64,000 nt of DNA from an uncultured Clostridia bacterium (lineage in GTDB: Bacteria > Bacillota > Clostridia > TANB77 > CAG-508), in contig CALXET010000005.1 of the NCBI GenBank assembly GCA_944387405.1, positions 30,823-94,822 on the forward strand, given 5' to 3'. The notes beneath the pieces are model-generated. The model had not been told where the DNA came from. It saw only the letters and a program-made list of their open reading frames with translations, and searched no databases. Shown here piece after piece: positions 39,559 to 53,072 of the stretch. Position 1 is the stretch's first letter. Each line of letters starts with the position of its first letter. The position numbers and the translations under genes were made by a program.

Positions 39559-40905
39559 TTATTTATATAAGCTCCTATTTTTATTATTAATATGTCTAGT
39601 TCTTTTATATTTTATTTTATCCATTTTAAACTTTCTTTTTATTAATAATCCTAAAACAATTAACACTATTATTCCAATGAAAAGTATTTTAATTATGATA
39701 TTAAATAAATTATTATTTTTTTCTTCAACATCATGTGAAGCGATTAAATCAGCTGTATACGATAAACCATCTAAGCTATAAGTTACAGTTCCAACAACAT
39801 CTCCTTTAGATATTGGAGCTGATAGATTTTCTTTTAATTTAATTTTAGGTTCTATAGCATTATTTCTATTATCAAGATTAGCTAAGACATTTACATCGGA
39901 ATTAATTAATAATTCAAGAGATTTTGTGTCATTTGTTCCGTTTTCAATGTTAATAGTCGTGATTGAATTTGATTTTGCTTGAAGTTTCATAAAAGAATAA
40001 TTATTAAAAGCAAAATTAAACATGTTTATTGCATCTACATATCTTGTATCTTTATCAGGTGACCCTAATATTACTGATATAAATTCAAGACCGTTATTAT
40101 TTGCAGCAGCAACTAAACAATTGCCTGCAGGAGTTGTAAATCCAGTTTTAATACCAATTGCATAAGGATAATAATAGTTATTTTCAACATCATTATTGTT
40201 AACTATTATTAGAGAATTAGTATTTTTAAAAGTTCTATCATTATATGGATATAATTTTGTAGCAGGTAATGTATATGAAGTTGTTGCTACTATTTGCCTA
40301 AATATTTCATTTTTCATTGCGTATTGTGCAATAAGTGCTAAATCATGCGCAGTAGTATAGTGATTATCATCGTGCATTCCATTACCATTCATAAAGTGTG
40401 AATTTGTACATCCTATTGATTTAGCTTTTTCATTCATTAGATTAACAAATTCTTCATAGGAACCAGATATATGTTCACCTAATATAACAGCAGCTTCATT
40501 AGCAGATGCAAGCATTAAAGCATATAATAAGTCTTTGACGCTTAATGTTTCTCCAACTTGTATATTTGCATTTGTATATCCAGAAGGAATAGATGTAACA
40601 GCATATTCACTAACTGTTGCCATTTCATCTAAAGAGCAACTTTCAATAGCAATTATTGCAGTTAAAATTTTAGTTGTGCTTGCTGGAAATTTTCTTTCTT
40701 CTCCATTTTTTGAATAAATTACTTTCCCTGTTGATGATTCAATTAAAATTGCAGCTTCTGATTGTATGGAAGAATTTAAGCTATCAAAATCTTCTTTTGT
40801 ACTAGCAGAAGAGATTAAAGGGAAAAATAATGATTGTATTAATATTACGAATAATATTAATTTAGATATTCTTTTAGTTAGTTTCATATATATCTCCTCA
40901 TACAC
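39559..40905 (-). CDS. D-alanyl-D-alanine carboxypeptidase (peptidase S11)
   Basis: ASTTK (SxxK), SAN (SxN), KTG, PBP5_C, C-terminal TM. Confidence 0.92.
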   Translation of the reverse strand: MYEEIYMKLTKRISKLILFVILIQSLFFPLISSASTKEDFDSLNSSIQSEAAILIESSTGKVIYSKNGEERKFPASTTKILTAIIAIESCSLDEMATVSEYAVTSIPSGYTNANIQVGETLSVKDLLYALMLASANEAAVILGEHISGSYEEFVNLMNEKAKSIGCTNSHFMNGNGMHDDNHYTTAHDLALIAQYAMKNEIFRQIVATTSYTLPATKLYPYNDRTFKNTNSLIIVNNNDVENNYYYPYAIGIKTGFTTPAGNCLVAAANNNGLEFISVILGSPDKDTRYVDAINMFNFAFNNYSFMKLQAKSNSITTINIENGTNDTKSLELLINSDVNVLANLDNRNNAIEPKIKLKENLSAPISKGDVVGTVTYSLDGLSYTADLIASHDVEEKNNNLFNIIIKILFIGIIVLIVLGLLIKRKFKMDKIKYKRTRHINNKNRSLYK

Positions 40906-40966
40906 ATAAATTAAAATAAATATACATTATTTTTCGACAAAAAACAATAGAAAGAAGGGATAAAAA

Positions 40967-41617
40967 TTGATAAATATTTATAGAAAATATATTGAAAAAA
41001 ATAAAAAATATATTATTATTGCACTATTATTTATATTTTTAATTATTGGAATAATTATTGTAAAGCAATTTGATACTGAAGAAAAAGAAAGTTTAGAATT
41101 AATTAGTATAGAAGAGGAGACAGAACAAGATAATAAATCTATAGAAGAAGAGGAAGATTATAAAATTGTAGTTCATATAACAGGTGAAGTTGAAAAAGAG
41201 GGAATAATAGAAATAAAAGAAGGGGGCAGAATTTCTGATGCAATAGATGCAGCAGGTGGACTTACAAAAGAAGCGGATCTTGAAAGAGTTAATCTTGCAT
41301 ATGAATTAGAAGATGGACAAAAAATATATATTCCAAATAAAAATGATAAGGATATAGAGGAATATGTCACAGAAGGAGTAGATGATATAGTGCTCCCTGA
41401 TGAACTTTCAAATATGGGGGACGGATTAATAAATATCAATAAAGCAGACTTAGAAGAGCTTCAAGAATTAGATGGAATAGGAGAAGCTTTAGCAGAGAAT
41501 ATAATTGCTTATAGGGAAAATAACGGTAAATTTAAAAATATAGAAGATATTAAAAATGTTTCAGGAATAGGTGATAGTAAATATGAAAAAATAAAAGATA
41601 GTATAAAAATAAGATAA
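40967..41617 (+). CDS. comEA: ComEA-like DNA uptake protein
   Basis: TM, SLBB (VHITGEV..AGG..DGQKIYIP), HhH (ININKAD, GIGE, VSGIG). Confidence 0.9.
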   Translation: MINIYRKYIEKNKKYIIIALLFIFLIIGIIIVKQFDTEEKESLELISIEEETEQDNKSIEEEEDYKIVVHITGEVEKEGIIEIKEGGRISDAIDAAGGLTKEADLERVNLAYELEDGQKIYIPNKNDKDIEEYVTEGVDDIVLPDELSNMGDGLININKADLEELQELDGIGEALAENIIAYRENNGKFKNIEDIKNVSGIGDSKYEKIKDSIKIR

Positions 41618-41630
41618 AATAATAAAAGAA

Positions 41631-41661
41631 AAAAGTACTTACTAATTTAGTAAGTACTTTT
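41631..41661. terminator. Bidirectional terminator, likely the original tRNA-fMet terminator
   Basis: AAAAGTACTTACTA-att-TAGTAAGTACTTTT. Confidence 0.75.
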
Positions 41662-41668
41662 TATTTCT

Positions 41669-41713
41669 TGGTTGCGGGAGTAGGACTCGAACCTACGACC
41701 TTCGGGTTATGAG
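41669..41713 (-). repeat. att site: displaced 3' half of tRNA-fMet
   Basis: 45 nt matching 58490-58534 with 3 substitutions; match ends at anticodon loop CTCATAA. Confidence 0.9.
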
Positions 41714-41913
41714 GGTTGACATAATGTTTTTGTGATGCGTATTGAATTGTATTGTATGCTAGTGTTATCAATACTTAGAAGTTTTTTCATTTAGTGAATA
41801 ATATGGTTGAAAATGTACCCTTTTTGAGAAATTGATCCCCAATTTCTCCCCAATTTTTTTATTAAGATTTTTGGGAGTATTTAGATATTATTTTTTATTT
41901 TGGAGGTTATTTT

Positions 41914-42210
41914 ATGATTAATAATTTTAGAAAAGTTAATGAAGATTTATTAAAAGATTGGCTTGCCTTTAGAGAAGAAACCGAGCTTGCCTTTCTTGAT
42001 GACGAAGATAAGAAACATACAGTTAAGTTTGATGAGATTTCTGAAAAAATTTTAGGTACTATACCTAAACAGAATAGAAAGTTTGTAGAAAAACAACTTG
42101 AATTACTTAATTCTAGTTTTCTAGAGTATATTTGTTACTGGAATGAAAAGTATTATAGGAATGGTTTTTGTGATGGCATTCAGTTAATTATTGGATGTCT
42201 GATTTTATAG
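41914..42210 (+). CDS. Small hypothetical protein (DUF6809-like)
   Basis: C-terminal YYRNGFCDG motif, SD GGAGG. Confidence 0.55.
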   Translation: MINNFRKVNEDLLKDWLAFREETELAFLDDEDKKHTVKFDEISEKILGTIPKQNRKFVEKQLELLNSSFLEYICYWNEKYYRNGFCDGIQLIIGCLIL

Positions 42211-42218
42211 AAAAAGCC

Positions 42219-43361
42219 CTATTGGGCTTTTTCTTTATTTTTATAATAATTAAAAGCTTTTACCAAACAATATAATTCTTTTATATTAGCAATATCACTA
42301 TTAAATGGAGGTATTCTATCCTTAAAATGCTTTAATAATATTTCTTCCATATCTTCATTATTCCAGTACTCATATAGCTTAGTATAATAATAACTTGACA
42401 TATTTGTAAAATATTCTGTATTACAAAAAACCACTTCTTCAATTTTACTTATTTGCTTTTCTTCTTCCGGATTTTGTATTATATCATATAAAATTGAAAC
42501 ATTTTCAATATTTTTTTCTCTATATTTTTCATATTCATTTTGATTATACTTATTTGTTATTTTTGTATTTATCAATATTCTCAAAACATCTATTATGTAT
42601 TTATATCTGGAATTAAGCCTTTTCTTGTCTTCTTTTTCTAAAATATTAAGTTGAATTATAGGATTATGATTTTTTTCTATTTTATTTCTTGCCACTTCTT
42701 TTTTATAATCCTTAATCATAGTTATTATTTCTTTATATAACGAGTCTAAATATACAATATATTTATCTAGATACTTATTTATATCCTCGAATTTAAATCC
42801 AAAACTTTCTTGTAAAAATTCCTTAGACTTCTTTTTACTCCACAGAAAGGTATAGTAATCCCAACCTTTTGTTGTACCGTGTAGTCTATCTAATATTGAA
42901 TTATATGGTGTTGGATATGTAGCTACAATAAATTCTTCATTATCCTTTAACTCTGTTGGATGAGCTCCAAATATAGCTCTTATGTTTTGAAAATAATTCC
43001 AATCATCTTTATTTTTATCACCAAATATATTGTTTTCTCCATAAAAAAGATGAATTCCATCTTTATTTTTCACAATTTTATATATATCATTTATGCCTTT
43101 TACAACAATATCAACTGCAGATATAAACAGGTATACTTCTCCCCAATTATAATCTTTTTTATTTTTCTTCAATAAATTATCACTACATAGATAATCTTCT
43201 ACTACTCTGAACCAGTGCATTACGGAACAAATAATACTCCACTTATCTTCTCCATATCTTTTATCAAGAATTAATAATATATCATCTTGATTTTGTCCAT
43301 TAATAAATTTTTCTAAACTATTTAATTTTTTTATTCTATCTTCATATTTCAATTTATTCAC
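42219..43361 (-). CDS. Hypothetical protein with HEPN-like R-x5-H motif, downstream of the RT
   Basis: YFQNIRAIFGAHP; starts 29 nt after RT stop. Confidence 0.55.
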   Translation of the reverse strand: MNKLKYEDRIKKLNSLEKFINGQNQDDILLILDKRYGEDKWSIICSVMHWFRVVEDYLCSDNLLKKNKKDYNWGEVYLFISAVDIVVKGINDIYKIVKNKDGIHLFYGENNIFGDKNKDDWNYFQNIRAIFGAHPTELKDNEEFIVATYPTPYNSILDRLHGTTKGWDYYTFLWSKKKSKEFLQESFGFKFEDINKYLDKYIVYLDSLYKEIITMIKDYKKEVARNKIEKNHNPIIQLNILEKEDKKRLNSRYKYIIDVLRILINTKITNKYNQNEYEKYREKNIENVSILYDIIQNPEEEKQISKIEEVVFCNTEYFTNMSSYYYTKLYEYWNNEDMEEILLKHFKDRIPPFNSDIANIKELYCLVKAFNYYKNKEKAQ

Positions 43362-43390
43362 CTACTATAATAATTTTACACTTCTATTTA

Positions 43391-44299
43391 TTATTTTTGT
43401 ATTTGCAATATTAATTGATTATATCCTTTTAATTTTAATATTTTTTTCTCCTTTTCTATATGTTTATTATTCTTTAATTTTATAATTCTATATCTTATTT
43501 TATTAGGAAGTACTAATTTATTTCCATCTTTTGATATAATATTGCCTGTTACTCTTTTAAACTCATTGGAATAATACTTTTTTAATTTTTTCTTTTGTAT
43601 GTTATAACCATTTCTTTTTATTATCGAAATAATTTTATTAATAATCTCATTATTTATCATCTTGTTTGAAGAAATAACTACATCATCCACATAAATAGAA
43701 ACTTTACACCCACTAATTTTTGCAACATTTGATATTTCATTAAACATATCAATGTTAGACAAGTAGGACATAATACAGCTTATAGAAGATCCTGTTGGTA
43801 TATGTTTCATTTGATGTATTTTATTATCTTTTAGATAGTCTAAAACATTATTATCTAAATTAGAAATTTTTTCTAAATTAACTGTACATAAATCTGTTAA
43901 AATCTCAGCCACATCACTGCTATTCATTAACTTATTTTTAAAGAACTTATATACTTTTTCTCTACTAATATTAGGAAAAAACTTATTTATATCAAGTGCA
44001 ACCACATATTTACTTTCTAAATGATACAAACCATTATCAATATATGATTTTCCAGGTATTCCTGAAAAAATATTTTCATCATACTTTATATCTTTTAATA
44101 ATATTTGTATTCTTTTTTGAATAGATTTTAATTCTTTCGAATCTATTGGCTCAATAAGTCTCTTTTTTCCTTTATTAGCAATATATGGTTTATATAAATT
44201 ACAAATTTGACTAATATTTTTTTTGCTATTTATTTTTAATAACACTCTTATATCTCTTTTTCTTTTAATTCCATAAAGTTTACAGGTAGTTAAATCCAT
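43391..44299 (-). CDS. Retron-type reverse transcriptase
   Basis: KKRLIEP, SYIDNGLYH (NAxxH-like), LDINKFFPNI, PTGSSIS, YVDD, RVTG; 302 aa with no maturase/endonuclease domain. Confidence 0.88.
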   Translation of the reverse strand: MDLTTCKLYGIKRKRDIRVLLKINSKKNISQICNLYKPYIANKGKKRLIEPIDSKELKSIQKRIQILLKDIKYDENIFSGIPGKSYIDNGLYHLESKYVVALDINKFFPNISREKVYKFFKNKLMNSSDVAEILTDLCTVNLEKISNLDNNVLDYLKDNKIHQMKHIPTGSSISCIMSYLSNIDMFNEISNVAKISGCKVSIYVDDVVISSNKMINNEIINKIISIIKRNGYNIQKKKLKKYYSNEFKRVTGNIISKDGNKLVLPNKIRYRIIKLKNNKHIEKEKKILKLKGYNQLILQIQK

Positions 44300-44304
44300 A
44301 TAAA

Positions 44305-44359
44305 AATTCCCCCTTTTATAAATAAATTATATTTTAATTTACTTATAAAAAGGGAAATT
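44305..44359 (-). promoter_or_regulatory. 24-bp hairpin occluding the RT Shine-Dalgarno
   Basis: Arms 44305-44328 and 44336-44359; all 3 mismatches are G-U wobbles on the minus strand. Confidence 0.7.
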
Positions 44360-44570
44360 AGTTAGTTTTTTTAGAATTAATAATAATAGTTATTATATTA
44401 TTACCAACGATAGCAGTGATCGCAGTTACTATTATTATAGGATTCCACCTTAAGTAAGTTCCAATAATTGACACTACTAAAAATTCTAAAATTATAGGTA
44501 TAACTTCAATTATTTTTTCCAATAACTGAATTACCAATTTTTGTTTCTGCTTTTTAGGTAATATCATCAT
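44358..44570 (-). CDS. ~70-aa two-TM hydrophobic peptide, candidate toxic effector
   Basis: SD AGGAGGTG then ATG 44570; basic N-terminus, two hydrophobic stretches, KK at C-terminus. Confidence 0.7.
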   Translation of the reverse strand: MMILPKKQKQKLVIQLLEKIIEVIPIILEFLVVSIIGTYLRWNPIIIVTAITAIVGNNIITIIINSKKTN

Positions 44571-44572
44571 TT

Positions 44573-44901
44573 CATTCACCTCCTATTGTAAATTAGAACA
44601 TCTATATAGTTTGGTGCGCACTTATTCAAACTATTATAAACGCCCTTCGCTTCTAATTTAGGAATTGTGAATGGTAGTACTATCCGGAACTAACTATTTC
44701 CATGTCCTTCGCATAATATGCAAAGTAATTTTATTCATGACAATATAAACAATAATATATCATGAATATATGAACTTTGAACAGTATGATTGTTCTTTCT
44801 GCATTAGATATACATTTATATATTCCCACGAATAATGCGAACTAAAAGTTCTCGCTATCTTTCGATAACCAATAGAAGGGTATTTCGAACACTTTGGAAC
44901 T
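44573..44901 (-). ncRNA. Structured RT-associated ncRNA/leader (msr-msd-like candidate)
   Basis: At least 7 hairpins incl. a GAAA tetraloop, closed by UUCCA/UGGAA and CCUUC/GAAGG, followed by a 101-nt hairpin. Confidence 0.7.
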
Positions 44902-44907
44902 ATAGTA

Positions 44908-44936
44908 AGTATATTATATTTTTTTAATCTTTTCAA
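44908..44936 (-). promoter_or_regulatory. sigma70-type promoter for the ncRNA-peptide-RT transcript
   Basis: TTGAAA (44936-44931)-N17-TATACT (44913-44908); predicted TSS ~44901. Confidence 0.6.
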
Positions 44937-44975
44937 GCATCCTTTAACTATTTCCTTTACTAACACGTTTATTCT

Positions 44976-45755
44976 CTATTTTTTTAATACAAATACATAT
45001 TCGTGTGCCAATAAATAAAAATCCATATTCTTATTTTTCCAATAACCTGTCATCTTACAATTATGTTGTTCTTTTATAATTATTTCTTTTAATGTGAAAC
45101 CTGTTTGAATAAAAATATTCATGACATAAAAACCTAATGGAATAATATTCTTATTTTTTCTAATATCTCCTATTAAAATTGAACAAATTTTATCTTTTTT
45201 TAGAACCCTAAAACATTCTTTTGAAAATAAACTTATTTGATTTAAAAATTCTTGTAAGTTTAATCTTGATAAATCTTCTTCTATATCTTCACTATATTTT
45301 ATAATATTGGCATATGGTGGATGTGCAAATATAAAATCTATTTTTTCATTTGGTATTATTTTTTGTAAATTGGTTGAATCTGCCCTTAATAATCTTGGTT
45401 CATATATAGTTTGGTATTTAAAGTTTAATCTACTTCTAGCTAATTTTAAAGCATCTATATTTATGTCAATTCCTATTCCTTTTCTATTTAGTAATTTACA
45501 TTCTATCATTGATGTACCACTTCCACAAAAAGGATCTAAGACTATATCTTTTTCTTCCGTATATTTTAATATTAAATTTCTTGGTACTTGTGGTGGGCAA
45601 TTACCTCTATAATCTCCTTTATGTGTTGCCCATTTTCCTCTTTCTTTAAAACTCCATATTGTAGTTCTTTCTAATTTAAATTCTTTTGGATTATATATCA
45701 ATAAACATTCCTCCTTAATTATAAAGAGCAACCTTAATAAAAAAGTTGCCCCCAA
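44976..45755 (-). CDS. Additional N4-C/N6-A DNA methyltransferase
   Basis: VLDPFCGSGT, FAHPPY, WATHKGDYRGN; real start probably TTG ~45702. Confidence 0.8.
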   Translation of the reverse strand: MGATFLLRLLFIIKEECLLIYNPKEFKLERTTIWSFKERGKWATHKGDYRGNCPPQVPRNLILKYTEEKDIVLDPFCGSGTSMIECKLLNRKGIGIDINIDALKLARSRLNFKYQTIYEPRLLRADSTNLQKIIPNEKIDFIFAHPPYANIIKYSEDIEEDLSRLNLQEFLNQISLFSKECFRVLKKDKICSILIGDIRKNKNIIPLGFYVMNIFIQTGFTLKEIIIKEQHNCKMTGYWKNKNMDFYLLAHEYVFVLKK

Positions 45756-45774
45756 AAAACTTTTATAATATCTT

Positions 45775-46710
45775 TTATTTAAAATATTCTTTTATTACTT
45801 CTTCTAACATTCCGTTTTTTGCAAGATAAAAGTTCATAAGATAATTCATATTTCTAAATCCCTTTTGTAACTGATTTTTTGATTTATTATCCCAACATAA
45901 ACCATCTGTTAGTAATACAAATCCCATATTTAACTTATCTAAATCATGTTGCCTATTAATATAACTATCAATTATTTCTTCAGGTTTTGATCCTCCCCTA
46001 AAGAAATAATCCACTTCTATATTTAAAGCTTTATTATCTTTTATTAATATAAAATCTGCTTTTCTATTTGCAATATCTTCCGATACACTAAAGCCATAAT
46101 CTTTCAGTTTTTTAAATTGCTTTTGTGATAACATCGTTACACTATATTTTTCACAAATTTTCTTTATTACTGGTTCACAAGCATCTTCAAATGCTGTTCC
46201 ACCTCTGTTTTTTCTACCATTAGAATCTAACCCTACTAATACTCCAATAACGTAATCGGTTAAACTTTTTTCAACTAGATTTTCACATAAACTTTTTAAA
46301 CCAATTCTTTCAAAGAAATAATAATAATTTTCTATTTCCTTTTTAGAAAGTCCTTGTTTTAATTTCTCTATTTCAAAAGAAAACTTCAAATTTTCATCAT
46401 TCCCTATTTCATCGCCAACAACTGCTAATAAATTTTTTCCATACCATACTTCTGTTCTTTCATTTTTTGAAAGTGCAAATAATAATGGGAAAGTAGCAAT
46501 AACTGTTGGTACTTTTTCTACTAGTTTGTAAAACTTCTCTTTAATATTATCTGCTCTTATCAATACATTCATTGCGTTCAATTCTATCTCAAATTCCTTA
46601 TACGCTTTTGCATTTTTCCAATTAACATAAAAGTCAAATCCTCTATTAGTTTCCAATAAATTATTTACAAATATTTCTGACAACTTATCATAATCCATTT
46701 CTAAGTACAT
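45775..46710 (-). CDS. dpnB: DpnII-family type II restriction endonuclease
   Basis: YVIGVLVGLDSNGRKNRGG, ADFI, IEVDYF..GGSK, LLTDG; follows two MTases. Confidence 0.85.
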   Translation of the reverse strand: MYLEMDYDKLSEIFVNNLLETNRGFDFYVNWKNAKAYKEFEIELNAMNVLIRADNIKEKFYKLVEKVPTVIATFPLLFALSKNERTEVWYGKNLLAVVGDEIGNDENLKFSFEIEKLKQGLSKKEIENYYYFFERIGLKSLCENLVEKSLTDYVIGVLVGLDSNGRKNRGGTAFEDACEPVIKKICEKYSVTMLSQKQFKKLKDYGFSVSEDIANRKADFILIKDNKALNIEVDYFFRGGSKPEEIIDSYINRQHDLDKLNMGFVLLTDGLCWDNKSKNQLQKGFRNMNYLMNFYLAKNGMLEEVIKEYFK

Positions 46711-47486
46711 TATTGTTCCTCCTTCATTTTTTTATATCTTCTTATAGATAGTTCTATATATTTTTTCTCGTTGTCTATCCCTATGTATCTTCTATTTAAT
46801 CCAACTGCTGATATTCCTGTTGTACTACTACCACAAAATGGATCTAAAATCAAATCTTCTTCTTTGGTTGAAGCAAGTATTATTCTATCTAATATTTCTA
46901 ACGGTTTTTGTGTGGGATGTTTTCCACATTTCTTTTCGGATGGTTTTGTCAACGAAGTTGTCCAAACATCTTTCATTTGTTTATTATTGTTAATTTCTTT
47001 CATTAAAGTATAATTGAATGTATATTTCACATTTTTTAAATCTTTCCTTGCCCATAATATAGTTTCTGTTGAATGTGTAAATGTCTTGCACGCCAAATTG
47101 GGTGGTGGATTAGTCTTTTGCCATGTTATATTATTTATTATTTTGAATCCCTCTTCTTCGAGTGCCATACCAATTGAATAAATATTATGTAATGTACCAC
47201 TTATCCATATAGTTCCGTTATCTTTTAAAATTCTATAACATTCTTTTATCCATTTTTTATTAAACTTATGTTTTTCTTTAATTGATAATGTTTTATCCCA
47301 TTCGCCTTTATTAACACTAACCATTTTTCCACCGCTACATGTAATACCATTTCCAGAAAGGAAATATGGCGGATCTGCAAAAATCATATCTATACTCTTA
47401 TCTTCAAATTTTTTAATTGCCTTAAATATATCATTATAAATCAATTTGAAGCTATCGGATTCAAAATAGTATTTCCCTCTATACAT
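46710..47486 (-). CDS. dpnA: DpnA-like adenine methyltransferase
   Basis: FADPPYFLS, SVNKGEWD, KHPTQKP, LDPFCGSSTTG. Confidence 0.85.
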   Translation of the reverse strand: MYRGKYYFESDSFKLIYNDIFKAIKKFEDKSIDMIFADPPYFLSGNGITCSGGKMVSVNKGEWDKTLSIKEKHKFNKKWIKECYRILKDNGTIWISGTLHNIYSIGMALEEEGFKIINNITWQKTNPPPNLACKTFTHSTETILWARKDLKNVKYTFNYTLMKEINNNKQMKDVWTTSLTKPSEKKCGKHPTQKPLEILDRIILASTKEEDLILDPFCGSSTTGISAVGLNRRYIGIDNEKKYIELSIRRYKKMKEEQ

Positions 47487-48412
47487 TTTATTTCTCCATT
47501 ATAAGAATTCTGTGTTTTATAATTTGTTATTAGAAGTTCGGATATTTCACCTCTTCCTTTTGAATTAGCATTTATCATTCTTTTAGCATAAACTTTATTA
47601 ATATTAAATCCCCCATAGATGTTTTCAAAAAAGAAATCATCTTTATTTGTATTCTTAGGATTTGAATTACTAAGCATAACTTTTACATTATTCTTGTTCA
47701 ATTCTCTATAGTATGAAGCTAATTCTTTTTGAGCCTCATCATCAAAATCTTCTTTAGTATATGACGTAAATCCTGATGTAACATTTAAAGGTCTATATGG
47801 TGGATCAAAATAAACAAAAGTATTTTTCTTTATATATTTTTCACTTGTTCTATAATCTCCATATTGAAAATTTACATTTTTTATAAGATTAGACAGTCCT
47901 CTTAAGTTTTCCTCATCACAAATAGTTGGATTTTTATAATTCCCCATAGGAACATTAAAATCTCCTTTTTTATTTACTCTATATAATCCGTTAAAACATG
48001 TTCTATTTAAAAATATAAATTCTACTGCCTTTTGTACTGACATTTCATCTTTAGCTAATTTGTGTACATTATAATTCTTTCTTATTTTATAGAAGTATTC
48101 CTTTCTATTCTCTTTTTCCATACACAAATATTCTCTTTCTAATAGCTTTAAATTAGCTATCAATTCATCAACATGATTTTTTATTACGTTATAAGAATTT
48201 ATTAGTTCTAAATTTATATCAAAAGCATACACTTCTTTAACTTTATAACTTTGCAGTATATCTATTAATACTGCTCCTCCACCAACAAAAGGCTCTATAT
48301 AACAATCTATTTTGCCATTTTGTAATTCTAATGGATAAAACTTTTCTAATTGATTTAATAGGCTACCTTTGCCTCCTGCCCATTTTACAAATGGCTTTAT
48401 TTTATTTTGCAT
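47441..48412 (-). CDS. dpnM: Dam/DpnM adenine methyltransferase (GATC)
   Basis: KWAGGK, EPFVGGGA, FNGLYRVN, YFDPPY. Confidence 0.9.
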   Translation of the reverse strand: MQNKIKPFVKWAGGKGSLLNQLEKFYPLELQNGKIDCYIEPFVGGGAVLIDILQSYKVKEVYAFDINLELINSYNVIKNHVDELIANLKLLEREYLCMEKENRKEYFYKIRKNYNVHKLAKDEMSVQKAVEFIFLNRTCFNGLYRVNKKGDFNVPMGNYKNPTICDEENLRGLSNLIKNVNFQYGDYRTSEKYIKKNTFVYFDPPYRPLNVTSGFTSYTKEDFDDEAQKELASYYRELNKNNVKVMLSNSNPKNTNKDDFFFENIYGGFNINKVYAKRMINANSKGRGEISELLITNYKTQNSYNGEIKCIEGNTILNPIASN

Positions 48413-48476
48413 TTTTTCACCTCTTATGTTTTGTATTTTATCATATATAATAAGTTTTTACAATAAAATTAAACTC

Positions 48477-51400
48477 TTAATTATCACTTTCATCGTAGTC
48501 ATCCCAAATTTCTTCAATATTCTCAATTAATAAATCGTAGAACTTGTTATTTTTCCATTTTTTCTCATCTTCTTTTTCTTTTTTGTATACTATACATTTC
48601 TTACATTCTGCATTTTGCTGTCTAGAATAATATTTATGACTTTTATAATGTTTATATTTCTCAATACTACCATCAGAATTTATTTGAATTTGAAGTGCGG
48701 AATCTTCACAATAACCAGTTTTAGGATGGTATTTTTCTGTAAAACAAAAATATTTGTAATTATGTTTTTTTATTAATATATCGTAATATTTTTTCTTTAT
48801 GTATAAAGTACCAGAGCATCCTTTTCTATACCACATTCCCTCATTATTATTAACTAATATAATTTTTTCTTCATTAACACCATTCCATGATGAAGAAAAT
48901 TTGTTGTAATGCAAATCAAATTCTTTTATGATTATTGATGGTGGCAAATTAAAATCTGTTGTTACATATATATTATTTAAATCACTTGCACTATATAAGC
49001 TAGTTGTCATTTTATAATTTTCATTTTTATAATCTTCAAAATTTCCTCTATATTTATTTGTTTCTATTGTATATTTTCTATCTTCATTACTAATACCACA
49101 TAAATTGTAGTTTTCATCTATTGCTAGATTTATTATATATGTATCAATCCAACTATTACCGTACTCATCATCTGATTTTTCATCTAGCCTTATACTCCCA
49201 TACAACATATAATATTTTTCATTTTTATACGTTATAGGTTCTATAATTTTTTTTATATTATTTAAACTTAATTCACTATCTTTCACCCATTTAATATTCT
49301 TTTTTTCTGGAACAATTATTTTTTTTAAAGTTTTATTATCTAAATTTTCTATATCTTGATTAAAAACAGCTACCGGATAATATATTTCAGCTTTTTCATC
49401 ATATCTATCATACAAGTTAAATTGATATCCCTTATAATCTCCATATATTTCAAACTCATTTGTAAAGTAATTACAAGTCATAGAGCCATTAATTTTCGAA
49501 AATGACAATTCTAAAGCCTTATATATAATTCCTTTTTCCTCTTCTTCGTACACATATATATTATCTAAATCTTTGATTTTTATATTATATTTTTTCATAT
49601 ATGTCTTAAAAATTTTTTGCCATGCTAAATAAATTACTCTATCCTCTATCTCTTCTTCATTTATTGAAAATTTTTTATCTATAAAATTCTCTTTAAAATA
49701 TGTTGAATTGCATTCATTATTATTCAAACATTTAAAGTGGTTTTGAATAAAACTATTTACTTTTATAATGGCTTTTTTTTCTTCTTTCAGAAATTTAGTT
49801 TGAAATGTTATAGAAGAATTATAAGTTTCAAATCCAAAGAAATCATAGTCATATTTATATGTAAAAAATATTCTATGTAAAAATTTTAAAATATTATTGT
49901 CTATCCTTTTGTCTGTATCTAGAATATAATTTGTCTTTTCCATTTTTTCATAATTTTCTTTTCCATATAAATAATTACTGATAAAGTATAAATTCTTAAT
50001 ATTACAAAAATCTATGACATTTATTCTATTAAAAAATTTTTTTATTATTTTATTATTCTTTTTTAAAGAACTTAATACTTGTACTACCATTTCTTGTATA
50101 TATTCATCTTTAACTTCACTATATATTGATATCAATTTATTAATATACTCTGAATGAATATTAGTTATTTCAAATATAAGTTTTTTTGCTAAAGTTCTAT
50201 TCAATTTATTGACTAATGATGAGCACCAAACTGCATACCAAAACTTTTCTTCTATGTATTTTTTATCATAATTAAATTTACTAACAGTTTGAACATATAC
50301 TTTTAATTTGTGTCTAATTTTTTTAACATCATATCCAACTATATTCAATTGCTTTTTATCGTAAATTTTTTTTAATTTATCATTTAAAAAATTTGTACAA
50401 TTAAAAGGATTGCTTTCATTTCCTCCAGCTCGAATTAGTAATTGCTCTAAGGGAATATTTACCTTAAGTAATTTTTGAATTTTCGTCATATTGTTAGTAC
50501 TTAAATTTAATTCATTAAAAATCTCTATATCCAGATAATTATTTAAAGCAGTCTCTTTTATTATTTTTATAGCTATTTCTATATTATCTTCATATTTTTC
50601 AAATAGCATTAAAATAACTTGATCATGTATACTATAAAATACTTTTACAATTTTACTTATATATTCTTTAGTTTCAGATATATTTAATCCATCTAAATTA
50701 TCAAATAAAAATCTTGCAATTAAATAATCTGTTAAAGTTTCATTTATAAAATAAATAAAAGTATCATTATCATAATCATAGGTACCAACAAAATTATTTG
50801 TTTTCATTTTATTCATATATGCACTAAAGTCAGTTATATTTAATTTATTCAACTCATCTACTTTTATTTCTTTACTTTTATTTTTAAACATCTCACCAAT
50901 TATTTTCTTTGTAATATTCCAATCATTTCTAGTTAAAACATTCTTAATAAAATGCTCATAAATATATGTACCTTTTGTAATTGGTTTTAATCCTTTATTT
51001 ATTAATTGATTTTCACTTATTGACTTTATTATTAGTTTTAAATGCAATGGATTATTATCATATAATAATCTATCATATATTGATAAGTCCAAATTATATT
51101 TTTCTGATATTTTTTCTAATGCATTATCCGGATCTACACCTGTAAAAATTTCTTCAATATCAACTAATTTTTTTAGTCTTTGTATTTCTTTTTCAGCCAT
51201 TGAGAAATCTCTTAATGAAATTATGACTCTTAAATTTGAATTGTTCCTGTTATCATTTATAAATTTATATATTTTTTCTCTTAAACCTTCGTTAAATTCG
51301 TTAATTGCATCAATTATAAAATAAAATCTATCATTTTTTATATTTTTAACTATATCTTTAAAGATATCATTTTCTATATTTTCACAATATTTTCCATATA

Positions 51401-51854
51401 AACATAAATAATTAAATTTCTTACTTACTTTTTCTGAAAATTCAAATAAAAATTGACTCTTTCCTATTCCTCCAGGTCCACTTATCATAATAATTTTATT
51501 AAACTTCATTCCATTAATAACATCATAATATGAAGTATAATATTTTTCTTTATATTTTTCTAACTTCTCATATTCTTTCTCTAATTCATAAAATTCTTTT
51601 TGTTCTATTTTCATACTATAATTATATTTCTTTATAATTTCATTAATTTTTTTTATAATTTCATTTTGTTCTAACTCTTCACCAGATAATTCTTTACCAC
51701 TATATCTATATAGCTCCCTTTCTTTAGGTACTTCACCTAATATATATGAAAATAATCTTTTATCTTCCCATTCATAATGTTCTTTTATCAGCTCTTTACT
51801 CATAGCATTTTTTTGAATTTTATTTAATTCTTTTATTTTCAATTTATATAACAT
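48477..51854 (-). CDS. Large STAND/NACHT-like NTPase, possible Avs-like sensor
   Basis: Walker A GPGGIGKS, Walker B FIIDAINE, ISLR, NPLHL, long helical C-terminus. Confidence 0.65.
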   Translation of the reverse strand: MLYKLKIKELNKIQKNAMSKELIKEHYEWEDKRLFSYILGEVPKERELYRYSGKELSGEELEQNEIIKKINEIIKKYNYSMKIEQKEFYELEKEYEKLEKYKEKYYTSYYDVINGMKFNKIIMISGPGGIGKSQFLFEFSEKVSKKFNYLCLYGKYCENIENDIFKDIVKNIKNDRFYFIIDAINEFNEGLREKIYKFINDNRNNSNLRVIISLRDFSMAEKEIQRLKKLVDIEEIFTGVDPDNALEKISEKYNLDLSIYDRLLYDNNPLHLKLIIKSISENQLINKGLKPITKGTYIYEHFIKNVLTRNDWNITKKIIGEMFKNKSKEIKVDELNKLNITDFSAYMNKMKTNNFVGTYDYDNDTFIYFINETLTDYLIARFLFDNLDGLNISETKEYISKIVKVFYSIHDQVILMLFEKYEDNIEIAIKIIKETALNNYLDIEIFNELNLSTNNMTKIQKLLKVNIPLEQLLIRAGGNESNPFNCTNFLNDKLKKIYDKKQLNIVGYDVKKIRHKLKVYVQTVSKFNYDKKYIEEKFWYAVWCSSLVNKLNRTLAKKLIFEITNIHSEYINKLISIYSEVKDEYIQEMVVQVLSSLKKNNKIIKKFFNRINVIDFCNIKNLYFISNYLYGKENYEKMEKTNYILDTDKRIDNNILKFLHRIFFTYKYDYDFFGFETYNSSITFQTKFLKEEKKAIIKVNSFIQNHFKCLNNNECNSTYFKENFIDKKFSINEEEIEDRVIYLAWQKIFKTYMKKYNIKIKDLDNIYVYEEEEKGIIYKALELSFSKINGSMTCNYFTNEFEIYGDYKGYQFNLYDRYDEKAEIYYPVAVFNQDIENLDNKTLKKIIVPEKKNIKWVKDSELSLNNIKKIIEPITYKNEKYYMLYGSIRLDEKSDDEYGNSWIDTYIINLAIDENYNLCGISNEDRKYTIETNKYRGNFEDYKNENYKMTTSLYSASDLNNIYVTTDFNLPPSIIIKEFDLHYNKFSSSWNGVNEEKIILVNNNEGMWYRKGCSGTLYIKKKYYDILIKKHNYKYFCFTEKYHPKTGYCEDSALQIQINSDGSIEKYKHYKSHKYYSRQQNAECKKCIVYKKEKEDEKKWKNNKFYDLLIENIEEIWDDYDESDN

Positions 51855-52125
51855 CTCCTATAGGTTTTTATAGAATATATATCATATTTCTTTAAATTTC
51901 TCAATTTTTCAATACGAATTACTATTATATTGTCTTTTTAAATAATTCTCTTCTATAAAACTTATGTAGCTTAGCTACTTGTTCAACCTTTTGTATGTAC
52001 AAAAGGGAATCTTGCTTAAAGATTCTACATTTAAAACTATCTATAAATCTCACGATGAGAATTTTTTTATAAAAAGAAATTCCCCAATGGGAACTTCTTT
52101 TTATATTACCTAATATATTTTCTTA

Positions 52126-52278
52126 CTAATAATTATCTGCAATATATTCTTCTATTTTTCTTAATAAATCATTATATGAATTAAATTCATAATGACTTTT
52201 TTCTACAATGTCTAATTTAAATGTTGTAGTAAATGTAGTTTTGTTGTTTATATTTTCATTATCTTTATATTCCTTCAT
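52126..52278 (-). CDS. 50-aa hypothetical ORF absent from the ORF track (MKEYKDNEN...IADNY)
   Basis: SD GAGGT, ATG 52278, TAG 52126-52128; directly after the replisome organiser. Confidence 0.5.
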   Translation of the reverse strand: MKEYKDNENINNKTTFTTTFKLDIVEKSHYEFNSYNDLLRKIEEYIADNY

Positions 52279-52285
52279 AGTTACC

Positions 52286-52843
52286 TCACTTTCTTAAATT
52301 ATCATAAAGATTATCAAAAAATTCTGATGGATATTTTCTTTGATCATAATCCAAATAACCTTTCTTCTTTGAAAAATTTTTTTTATTATGCTCTAATTTA
52401 TTATTTTCTTTTTTATTCTCCTCTATATCGTTACATAACGTTACATTAACGTTATTCTCATTTTTTTGATTTTCTCTAAACCTTTTTTGTCTTTCTCTAT
52501 TTTGTTGTTTTACAATCTCATATTTATCAGCACTTTGGTACTTATACCAATTTTTAATTCGATATATATTGTCCTCACAAATTATCATTTCAAAATGGAT
52601 TAACTTGTTCAATATATTTTGAATTTTTTTGTTTGATTTGTGTGTAATTGTTGCAAGATTTTCTACTGTTATTGGTGTATTTTCTGACATCATAATTTTT
52701 CCATCTTGCATAGATGTACCAGCAAGTGTCAGTAATTGAATCCATACTCTAAAGAACGTGTCCCCATCACGTTCTTTGAGTAATAGTTGAATTTTAGGAT
52801 TTGCAAATATATTTGTAAACACTTTAATCCATTGCATAAACAA
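52286..52843 (-). CDS. Phage replisome-organiser N-terminal domain protein
   Basis: WIKV..NIF.NPKI, WIQLL.LAG, IKNWYKYQ, RERQKRFR. Confidence 0.8.
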   Translation of the reverse strand: MFMQWIKVFTNIFANPKIQLLLKERDGDTFFRVWIQLLTLAGTSMQDGKIMMSENTPITVENLATITHKSNKKIQNILNKLIHFEMIICEDNIYRIKNWYKYQSADKYEIVKQQNRERQKRFRENQKNENNVNVTLCNDIEENKKENNKLEHNKKNFSKKKGYLDYDQRKYPSEFFDNLYDNLRK

Positions 52844-52853
52844 TACTCCTTTC

Positions 52854-53072
52854 CTATTTGTTTATAGAATTTTCTTCTTTTTCTTTTAAATATCCATCTA
52901 AAGCTTGTACTCTAAATAATACTCTTCCACCTACTCTTGCACATGGTATCTGTTTTCTTCTTACTAGTTGATTCACAAGCCAATATGATACGCCTAAATA
53001 TTCTGCTGTTTCTTTCATTGTTAGCGTTGTTCTTTCAACCTTTGGTAGTTCTTTCATAAAATCACCTCCCAC
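52854..53072 (-). CDS. Excisionase-family HTH protein
   Basis: TMKETAEYLGVS, IPCARVGGRVLF. Confidence 0.85.
   Translation of the reverse strand: MGGDFMKELPKVERTTLTMKETAEYLGVSYWLVNQLVRRKQIPCARVGGRVLFRVQALDGYLKEKEENSINK

Follow-up and report, generated by a model that had tools for sequence, protein, structure and literature searches.

Type VI retrons invert the usual retron logic, in that the cDNA turns a toxin on instead of holding it off, and how the cDNA opens the riboregulator is the step still open in published work. The locus considered here lies on the minus strand of a 64,000-nucleotide (nt) stretch of contig CALXET010000005.1 (assembly GCA_944387405.1) from an uncultured Clostridia bacterium; this whole stretch is called the window below, and all coordinates are positions in it. 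The locus carries a retron reverse transcriptase (RT) gene, a gene for a small protein (SP) ahead of it, and a structured leader in which a 101-nt hairpin covers the Shine–Dalgarno sequence (SD) of SP. How is SP kept silent here, and what could release it? We consider it likely that the hairpin serves a retron hybrid RNA as its module for repressing translation, with the second copy of a short repeat as the docking site that opens it.

The RT (43391..44299, minus strand, 302 aa) was assigned by PADLOC RT_VI, Pfam RVT_1 and its motifs. It matches RT_VI at 7.5e-63 with 210 bits over profile positions 2–272 of 279, the runner-up being RT_III-A at 101 bits. Motifs of retron RTs are YxDD, VTG and NAxxH, and the window RT has YVDD at residue 203, VTG at residue 250 and NGLYH at residue 89. 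Judged by its sequence, it is a type VI retron RT, and the region upstream is therefore taken as the leader of a retron “hybrid RNA”. SP (44358..44570, minus strand, 70 aa) has a basic N-terminus and two hydrophobic segments with Kyte–Doolittle peaks of 2.4 and 2.0, and matches no Pfam or PADLOC family. In type VI retrons, an SP ORF (open reading frame) whose C-terminal part is hydrophobic is expected between the non-coding RNA and the RT. Its true start is the AUG at 44570, eight bases past the SD, the listed GTG at 44579 falling within the SD. By analogy with the small proteins of Retron-Vpa2 and Retron-Sen3, SP is a putative toxic effector.

Type VI retrons are characterised by phage defence and by RT-dependent multicopy single-stranded DNA (msDNA), which is low at rest and rises with phage triggers. 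Two preprints describe retrons of this type, and a literature search on type VI retrons, hybrid RNA (hyRNA) and retron riboregulators returned no other relevant paper. According to the main text of the first (Zhang et al., bioRxiv 10.1101/2025.10.22.683967), the operon order is non-coding RNA (ncRNA)–SP–helix–turn–helix (HTH) protein–RT, little or no msDNA is present at rest, and Retron-Vpa2 shows an enriched hyRNA of about 470 nt that comprises msr–msd and the SP ORF. The same text places the Vpa2 ribosome-binding site (RBS), together with the start codon, within stem–loops and reports a 7-nt direct repeat with copies in an msd loop and a riboregulator loop; msDNA is described as necessary and sufficient for SP translation, and the authors propose hybridisation of the repeat, once reverse-transcribed, with its copy in the riboregulator. 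The Vpa2 HTH protein is reported there to repress reverse transcription and to be part of an RT–HTH–hyRNA complex. In the text of the second preprint (Garcia-Rodriguez et al., bioRxiv 10.64898/2026.04.27.721009), the RBS of Retron-Sen3 is sequestered and a segment beyond the variable stem pairs over a long range with the stretch past the SP stop, SP and single-stranded DNA are made constitutively, and an HTH antitoxin controls SP post-translationally.

Relatives of the locus were collected by a genome scan, which gave three loci, and by a metagenome scan with the RT alignment, from which the best 80 of 165 relatives were taken. With L005, L006 and the window added, the set comprises 84 loci; the upstream sequence is distinct in 66 of these, and 59 were analysed. 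Left out were L013, L023, L027, L046, L065 and L085, with less than 650 nt upstream, and L075, whose upstream sequence lies beyond the contig start.

A hairpin buries the Shine–Dalgarno sequence

The hairpin spans 44573..44673 on the minus strand, and the SD of SP, AGGAGG, lies within it at 44579..44584. Its folding energy is −28.2 kcal/mol vs. −13.9 ± 2.9 kcal/mol in 200 dinucleotide shuffles, none of which folds as low (z score −5.0). The outer helix pairs CAUUCAC (44673–44667) with GUGAAUG (44579–44573), the anti-SD helix pairs UCCU (44663–44660) with AGGA (44584–44581), and the middle helix pairs AAAUUAGAA (44659–44651) with UUCUAAUUU (44598–44590), at an inverted repeat (I21) of 10 nt with 100% complementarity. 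The unpaired probability per SD base in the window is 0.00–0.05, with a single base at 0.39; over 53 distinct leaders the mean SD value is 0.02, and it stays below 0.2 in 50 of them, the start codon averaging 0.55 in the same set. A preliminary description of this DNA had proposed that the hairpin buries the RBS of the peptide; the strings that it named all lie on the minus strand where it had placed them, and the burial of the SD is borne out by these values.

The preliminary description also drew an 8-nt bulge in the hairpin, formed by the second copy of the repeat. That structure has an energy of −25.8 kcal/mol, 2.4 kcal/mol above the minimum free energy (MFE) fold, and its middle helix is supported by homologs. 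However, the MFE fold pairs AGGG of this copy with GUUCU and leaves GCGA alone open, with unpaired probabilities of 0.89–0.99 for GCGA and 0.03–0.30 for AGGG. The folding model makes the 8-nt bulge one of two near-isoenergetic registers.

The pairing can be followed across lineages. In a cross-lineage alignment of 28 sequences, 92.0% of the middle-helix cells are paired vs. 77.5 ± 1.6% in shuffles, compensatory change is seen at five of the eight pairs, and 25 cells are changed on both sides vs. 7.3 in shuffles; none of 500 shuffles reaches the observed values. Slid controls are 25–59% paired, apart from 82% at +3, which reflects an alternative register. The helix on which the earlier proposal depended does covary in homologs. 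As the MAFFT alignment of the riboregulator aligned the middle helix only, the other helices were compared by independent folds, in which 12 of 12 lineage representatives give a common design (z scores −1.6 to −4.9): a basal anti-SD/SD stem, a middle stem, a 5′-side internal loop or mini-hairpin presenting the second repeat copy, and an apical hairpin. On the combined weight of folding, shared architecture and covariation, which are computational and comparative grounds, the hairpin is predicted to be the riboregulator that sequesters the SD in a type VI retron hybrid RNA.

A repeat pair and its 5′ complement

Two copies of a short repeat and a complementary strand near the RNA 5′ end connect this hairpin to the rest of the leader. 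Copy 1, GCGAAGGA (44705..44712, minus strand), lies in the 3′ arm of a small hairpin in the consensus fold, which in the window pairs CUUUGCA (44725–44719) with UGCGAAG (44713–44707). Copy 2, GCGAAGGG (44643..44650, minus strand), is placed by sequence and folding in the 5′-side internal loop of the 101-nt hairpin. The motif GCGAAGG occurs in the window at 44712 and at 44650, 62 nt apart, and the 5′ element CCCUUC (44880–44875, minus strand) complements both copies. Averaged over the 53 leaders, copy 2 is unpaired with a probability of 0.59, compared with 0.09 for copy 1.

Taken in the window alone, these short elements are weak: 64 of 500 shuffles contain a repeat of at least 7 nt in the same geometry, and 31 of 500 contain a 6-nt complement within 100 nt; it is the coordinated change in homologs, not the window alone, that puts the repeat and its complement beyond chance. 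Each of the 59 distinct loci has a repeat pair, with the copies 55–75 nt apart and copy 2 28–80 nt before the SD. It takes the forms GCGAAGG (6 loci), (A)TATGGGGCA (4), GAGGGGC (2), TGGGGAGT (2), (T)GGGAAGTC (44) and TGGGAAGA (1). A matching 5′ complement, CCCTTC, GCCCCA, AGCCCC, ACTCCC, (C)GACTTC or TCTTCC, is found in 58 of the 59, at the homologous site near the RNA 5′ end. The triad of 5′ element and two copies also occurs in the HTH-less L091 of another family (TAGGGGAG and ACTCCCC), in the canonical HTH-containing L008 and L009, and in L101 (Staphylococcus plasmid) and L103 (Burkholderia plasmid).

When the 5′ element is compared with each copy in 28 leaders, 96.4% of its cells are paired with copy 1 and 99.4% with copy 2, values that none of 500 shuffles reaches in either case, and slid controls are 19–69% paired. 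As far as the aligned sequences can tell, the three-way relation between the 5′ element, copy 1 and copy 2 is real and covarying, and the earlier observation that the repeat occurs twice with a common complement thereby gains a counterpart across lineages. Since the two copies are identical, covariation does not choose the partner of the 5′ element.

A conserved UGG (44869..44871, minus strand) always follows the 5′ element after 3–5 nt, in every lineage variant and also in L091, L101 and L103. By analogy with canonical retrons, its guanosine is a candidate branching (priming) nucleotide.

Partner of the 5′ element

In canonical retrons such as Retron-Eco1 (Ec86), a 5′ strand pairs just 3′ of the msd, a conserved G comes after that 5′ strand, and the small msr hairpins are followed by a long variable msd hairpin. 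The consensus fold of 28 leaders from other lineages has a comparable bipartite long-range stem of a1 and a2 strands, with 10 outer and 6 inner base pairs (bp), of which the inner six are exactly the 5′ element with copy 1; three of these six are compensatory. In the ensemble, the 5′ element has at least 3.5 expected bp with copy 1 in 36 of the 53 leaders and at most 0.17 with copy 2 in all 53. In the GC-richer lineages, the duplex energies are −16 to −29 kcal/mol for the copy-1 region vs. −9 to −13 kcal/mol for copy 2, which puts copy 1 ahead by 3–19 kcal/mol. In the window's AT-rich clade the two duplexes hardly differ or copy 2 has a small lead, the values for copy 2 and copy 1 being −11.9 and −10.0 kcal/mol in the window, −11.0 and −8.0 in L012, and −12.3 and −9.8 in L014. 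The a1-like strand of this clade (44875..44884, minus strand) was taken from the consensus fold of five clade members, and its a1/a2 stem comes down to a 5-bp closing helix, AAUAC (44884–44880) with GUACU (44680–44676), with one compensatory change, plus CCUUC with GAAGG.

On the consensus fold, the ensemble and the duplex energies together, we take the inner a1 strand to be the 5′ element and the inner a2 strand to be copy 1, with copy 2 as a conserved a2 duplicate displayed in the translational hairpin. The a2-duplicate reading is not found in the text of the two type VI preprints, to which this comparison is limited. In all eight sequence variants, the repeat goes beyond the a1-complementary core by 2–3 nt on the 5′ side and by no more than 1 nt on the 3′ side.

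The RNA itself might act as the switch, with CCCUUC alternating between copy 1 and copy 2; the SD hairpin would then respond directly to how the retron domain is folded or primed, and docking of msDNA would not be needed. The preliminary description had proposed such a pair of exclusive pairings, by which access to the RBS would be tied to the upstream domain. The coupling as such agrees with the model published for type VI retrons, as far as the preprint texts give it, and an exchange of partners is possible in sequence, but the ensemble never favours copy 2. Complementarity of the 5′ element to both copies in all lineages speaks for the exchange, as do the equal or better copy-2 duplex in the window clade, a complementarity to copy 2 in the window that spans 22 nt at 73% (I8) and would invade the upper stem, and the missing HTH protein, which favours RNA-borne control. 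Against it stand the ensemble values in all 53 leaders and the lead of copy 1 in the GC-richer lineages. Moreover, the identity between the copies (7–10 nt) exceeds the complement (5–7 nt), so something besides the 5′ element must also constrain both copies, and a 6-bp loop contact has no obvious way to open a hairpin of about 14–25 bp. We regard control by this exchange alone as unlikely.

A further pairing may bear on a2 in the GC-richer lineages. There, CACCAGCACA (or TACCAGCACA) stands directly after SP, as the first 10 nt past its stop codon (L005, L006, L020, L025 and L028–L079), and is the perfect complement of the outer a2 strand UGUGCUGGUG, whose pairing with the outer a1 strand is only through four G:U pairs. 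The RNA 3′ end could therefore compete with a1 for a2.

The position of the msd decides another question, since the preliminary description had also put forward the 101-nt hairpin as an msd template. Two msr-like hairpins, GUUAUC/GAUAGC (44869–44854) and GAAC/GUUC (44851–44839), follow the a1-like strand in the consensus fold (44839..44869, minus strand); each has two compensatory pairs among five sequences, and equivalents with compensatory changes occur in 28 other leaders. They are followed by a long variable hairpin (44731..44835, minus strand; inverted repeat I1 with 34-nt arms), which is where the window and L003 show the lowest sequence conservation, its structure being kept with compensatory changes. 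This hairpin, between the msr-like hairpins and copy 1, is the msd candidate of the model. The 101-nt hairpin is likewise long and downstream of the msr-like hairpins, and its copy 2 duplicates the inner a2 with 2–3 nt on the 5′ side, which could mimic an initiation site. However, the separate, longer and far more variable hairpin sits at the canonical msd position, the arms of the 101-nt hairpin are highly conserved and include the SD, and the consensus a1/a2 stem closes before the 101-nt hairpin starts. That it is itself the msd template is extremely improbable.

A discrete leader–SP RNA

A predicted promoter, with −35 TTGAAA, a 17-nt spacer and −10 TATACT (44908..44936, minus strand; 10 of 12 matches in a consensus scan), lies ahead of the leader. 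L003 has TTGAAA-17-TATAAT at the same place, and sequence conservation between the window and L003 starts just downstream of it. On the minus strand, the primary transcript is predicted to extend from about 44901 as far as about 44305.

Metatranscriptomes contain this RNA. Six RNA runs hold 68–79% of the words of 44300–44975, and the contigs of four of these runs, from four studies, cover 44337–44885 (depth 25.7), 44418–44885 (14.4), 44417–44880 (3.2) and 44443–44885 (30.7). These contigs, 443–549 nt long, show no differing letters vs. the window, and in the same four runs neither the RT gene nor the upstream methylase gene is covered by any contig. Three contigs have an end at 44885, a single base ahead of the closing helix, and the other end of the longest lies in the terminator loop; as contigs carry no strand and no firm ends, these positions only hint at the RNA ends. 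The leader–SP RNA (44337..44885, minus strand) is an abundant species apart from the RT message, as for Vpa2 and Sen3, and we consider this observation solid.

The terminator-like hairpin (44305..44359, minus strand; inverted repeat I2, 25 bp, −25.3 kcal/mol) is followed by a U-run, and the SD of the RT (AAGGGGGAA) lies in its 3′ arm. The window clade keeps this hairpin, and L016–19 and L021/24 have similar ones. Translation of the RT may thus be gated by the structure that also ends the leader–SP RNA. A terminator before the RT is a new feature relative to the described type VI retrons.

Long-range pairing is predicted toward the same end of the RNA. Next to copy 1, a small hairpin GGAA...UUCC (44686..44701, minus strand) appears in the consensus fold, and its loop and 3′ arm (44699–44688) are 92% complementary over 12 nt to the SP stop region (44367–44356; I18), a pairing that is present in the MFE fold of the 581-nt RNA.

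A sister lineage lacking the HTH partner

According to the text of the Garcia-Rodriguez et al. preprint (bioRxiv 10.64898/2026.04.27.721009), about 78% of type VI entries encode an HTH protein. As the criterion for such a partner, a Cro/C1-type HTH protein just upstream of the RT or overlapping it was used. Every one of the 59 distinct loci has a small hydrophobic ORF whose end lies 35–77 nt ahead of the RT, and in none of them is there an ORF between SP and RT; in the window this spacer is 58 nt long and likewise holds no ORF. Downstream of the RT, no gene is conserved among the 23 loci with downstream sequence. From these sequences, the HTH partner is lacking at the locus across the whole clade, which is new relative to the described type VI retrons.

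The PADLOC model HTH_VI (PDLC02926) gives 98–99 bits on true retron partners. It is a generic model, matching XRE-type HTH proteins in 13 of 14 control genomes at E ≤ 0.001, and therefore only high scores of about 98 bits mark true partners. Elsewhere in the genome of the window, only generic XRE-type matches were found, of at most 56 bits and at least 21 kb away, the best (56 bits) lying about 41 kb away. An HTH partner encoded in trans is conceivable.

An RT tree was built from 27 chosen rows: 17 HTH-less RTs, six HTH-linked type VI RTs and, from other retrons, four RTs. One side of a branch with 94/88 support (96% of bootstrap trees) holds all 17 HTH-less RTs, and the opposite side the six HTH-linked ones, with 97/87 support; the 23-row type VI group, which includes the window RT, is set apart from the four other retron RTs at 100/99. 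The tree suggests that the window clade is a new HTH-less sister lineage of the HTH-linked type VI RTs, in gut Clostridia.

Some of the compared loci carry further genes of note. In L016 and L017, of the ATGGGGCA lineage, an ORF of 334–377 aa (starting MTKINVEEVKKEMSEF...) lies 118 nt downstream of the RT and does not recur in L018. The plasmid-borne L101 (Staphylococcus) and L102 (Aeromonas) have SP ORFs of 47 and 53 aa that are unannotated in public records, and in both of these canonical type VI retrons, genes for type I toxins (Fst, Hok/Gef) sit just downstream of the RT.

Proposed docking at copy 2 and its alternatives

In the reading that we prefer, one promoter would give a single RNA that holds a1 with the candidate priming G, the two msr-like hairpins, the variable msd and a2 with copy 1, and that continues through the SD hairpin and the SP coding sequence to the terminator that directly precedes the RT gene. 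At rest, the SD would be buried and no SP would be made. Copy 2, exposed in the internal loop, would be the docking site for a strand carrying the complement of the repeat, and such a strand would become available only once the RT copies the msd. It may be msDNA, as proposed for Retron-Vpa2, or a1 RNA freed from a2. Docking would open the hairpin, SP would then be translated, and the infected cell would be arrested. As an HTH protein is lacking in this clade, RNA structure would carry the control, together with a terminator that limits RT expression.

Several points weigh against this reading. The 5′ complement is missing in the L086 group, in which L086 stands for four near-identical loci, and no convincing 5′ complement is seen in L090 and L102. 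The full-leader MFE fold of the window pairs the SD with the 5′ element region (CCUUCUAUUG/CAAUAGGAGG), not with the local anti-SD. This 10-bp complementarity between the 5′ element with its flank (44870–44879) and the SD region (44579–44588) is present in the window and L010 only; it is not kept in L003, L011, L012 and L014, and for that reason was left unused in the interpretation. The metatranscriptome contigs cannot prove the ends, strand or level of the RNA. If the 5′ element and copy 1 form the priming stem, the core of copy 1 would not be reverse-transcribed, and msDNA would then lack a complement for copy 2. Vpa2 needs its HTH protein to repress reverse transcription and SP, and none is present here, so the control logic may differ. 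Finally, Sen3 is a type VI retron with constitutive SP and post-translational control, as given in the text of its preprint (bioRxiv 10.64898/2026.04.27.721009).

The Sen3 precedent, known from the same preprint text, lends itself to a simpler account, in which the hairpin is a passive, constitutive damper of translation and a stability element that does not switch, SP being controlled elsewhere, either post-translationally or by RNA turnover, and the repeat with its 5′ complement being merely an a1/a2 priming stem plus a duplication. The a1/a2 stem fully explains the covariation of the 5′ element with copy 1, and the start codon is mostly unpaired, as the mean given above indicates. However, copy 2 has stayed identical to copy 1 through six independent replacements and is exposed in a loop, whereas a passive duplication would drift, and no antitoxin candidate is present at the locus, in either the spacer or a conserved downstream gene. 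A purely passive hairpin is very unlikely.

Docking of msDNA at copy 2 may also not be the full extent of its role. Copy 2 may be a functional duplicate of the reverse-transcription initiation site, beyond a mere msDNA docking motif, although we hold this to be quite unlikely. The 2–3 extra nt at the 5′ side of the repeat would correspond to the first templated nucleotides in a retron, and the a1 strand, the priming G and the RT would engage copy 2 in place of a2. This engagement would remodel the hairpin or prime cDNA through the anti-SD arm, after which RNase H would destroy that arm and leave the SD irreversibly exposed. If true, it would be a protein-free RNA coupling of reverse transcription to translation and would explain control in the absence of an HTH repressor.

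Neighbouring genes

Upstream of the retron, a scan with Pfam and PADLOC revealed a defence neighbourhood (44976–51854, minus strand) of DpnII-type restriction–modification, an extra methylase and a STAND NTPase. It comprises an extra N6/N4 methylase (44976–45755), a DpnII endonuclease (45775–46710), two methylases (46710–47486 and 47441–48412) and a 1125-aa STAND/AAA NTPase with a weak Avs2 match (48477–51854), all on the minus strand. Directly downstream of the RT, a 380-aa ORF (42219–43361, minus strand) was considered as a member of the module and rejected, as among the 23 loci with downstream sequence it is present only beside an identical RT (L002). It matches no Pfam or PADLOC family and may be a gene of the island in its own right. 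A tRNA suspected at about 41661–41771 was likewise dismissed, as ARAGORN finds none in 40000–53000 and Rfam gives chance matches and a terminator-like hairpin there. For the leader itself, an Rfam search of 43300–45100 with E up to 10 returned no retron or riboswitch family, only chance-level matches.

Comparison with described systems

The locus shares with Vpa2 a type VI RT, a single transcript with msr–msd and a small putative toxin ORF, an RBS in a stem–loop, a short direct repeat with one copy near the msd 3′ end and one in the riboregulator loop, and a leader–SP RNA that is enriched over the RT. While these features agree, we note several differences. First, the window has no HTH gene, and its host is a gut Clostridia bacterium, not a Vibrio. 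Second, an intrinsic terminator bearing the SD of the RT lies between SP and RT. Third, the start codon lies outside the hairpin. Fourth, the 5′ complement of the repeat is documented here with covariation, unlike in the text of the Vpa2 preprint, whose figures, including Fig S4, may show it.

With the Sen3/cl2075 lineage, the locus has in common a structured ncRNA with terminal inverted repeats, a sequestered SP RBS and a long variable internal stem–loop as the cDNA-template candidate. Sen3's long-range pairing between IR1 and IR2 has likenesses in the I18 pairing of the window and in CACCAGCACA of the GC-richer lineages. Unlike Sen3, the window clade lacks an HTH protein, and the window RT belongs to a separate sister lineage. 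In contrast to a canonical retron, the effector ORF is part of the same RNA, and the inner a2 strand is duplicated within the translational hairpin.

In type I toxin–antitoxin systems such as hok/Sok, and in synthetic toehold switches, a hairpin covers the SD and an exposed element serves as the entry for a complementary strand. The locus resembles type I toxin mRNA leaders in that a small hydrophobic putative toxin would be held untranslated by an SD hairpin with an exposed short entry element. Unlike in hok/Sok, no antisense RNA gene is evident at the locus, and the proposed opener is a product of reverse transcription or a strand of the same RNA.

Significance

The kind of system is already known from the two recent preprints; what is new is the HTH-less sister clade, the terminator-gated RT and the reading of the repeat as an a2 duplicate. 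The locus and its roughly 60 relatives represent a minimal two-gene version of a type VI retron, with SP and RT and without an HTH repressor, where the RNA would have to carry all of the control. They also amount to a natural mutagenesis series, in which the repeat has been replaced six times, with the 5′ strand and both copies changing together each time. This series defines the nucleotides that matter and offers compensatory-mutation tests that would separate docking of msDNA from a switch by the a1 strand. Gut metatranscriptomes add in vivo evidence of a discrete, abundant leader–toxin RNA, unlike the RT message, and the type VI hybrid-RNA design is thereby extended to abundant gut Clostridia.

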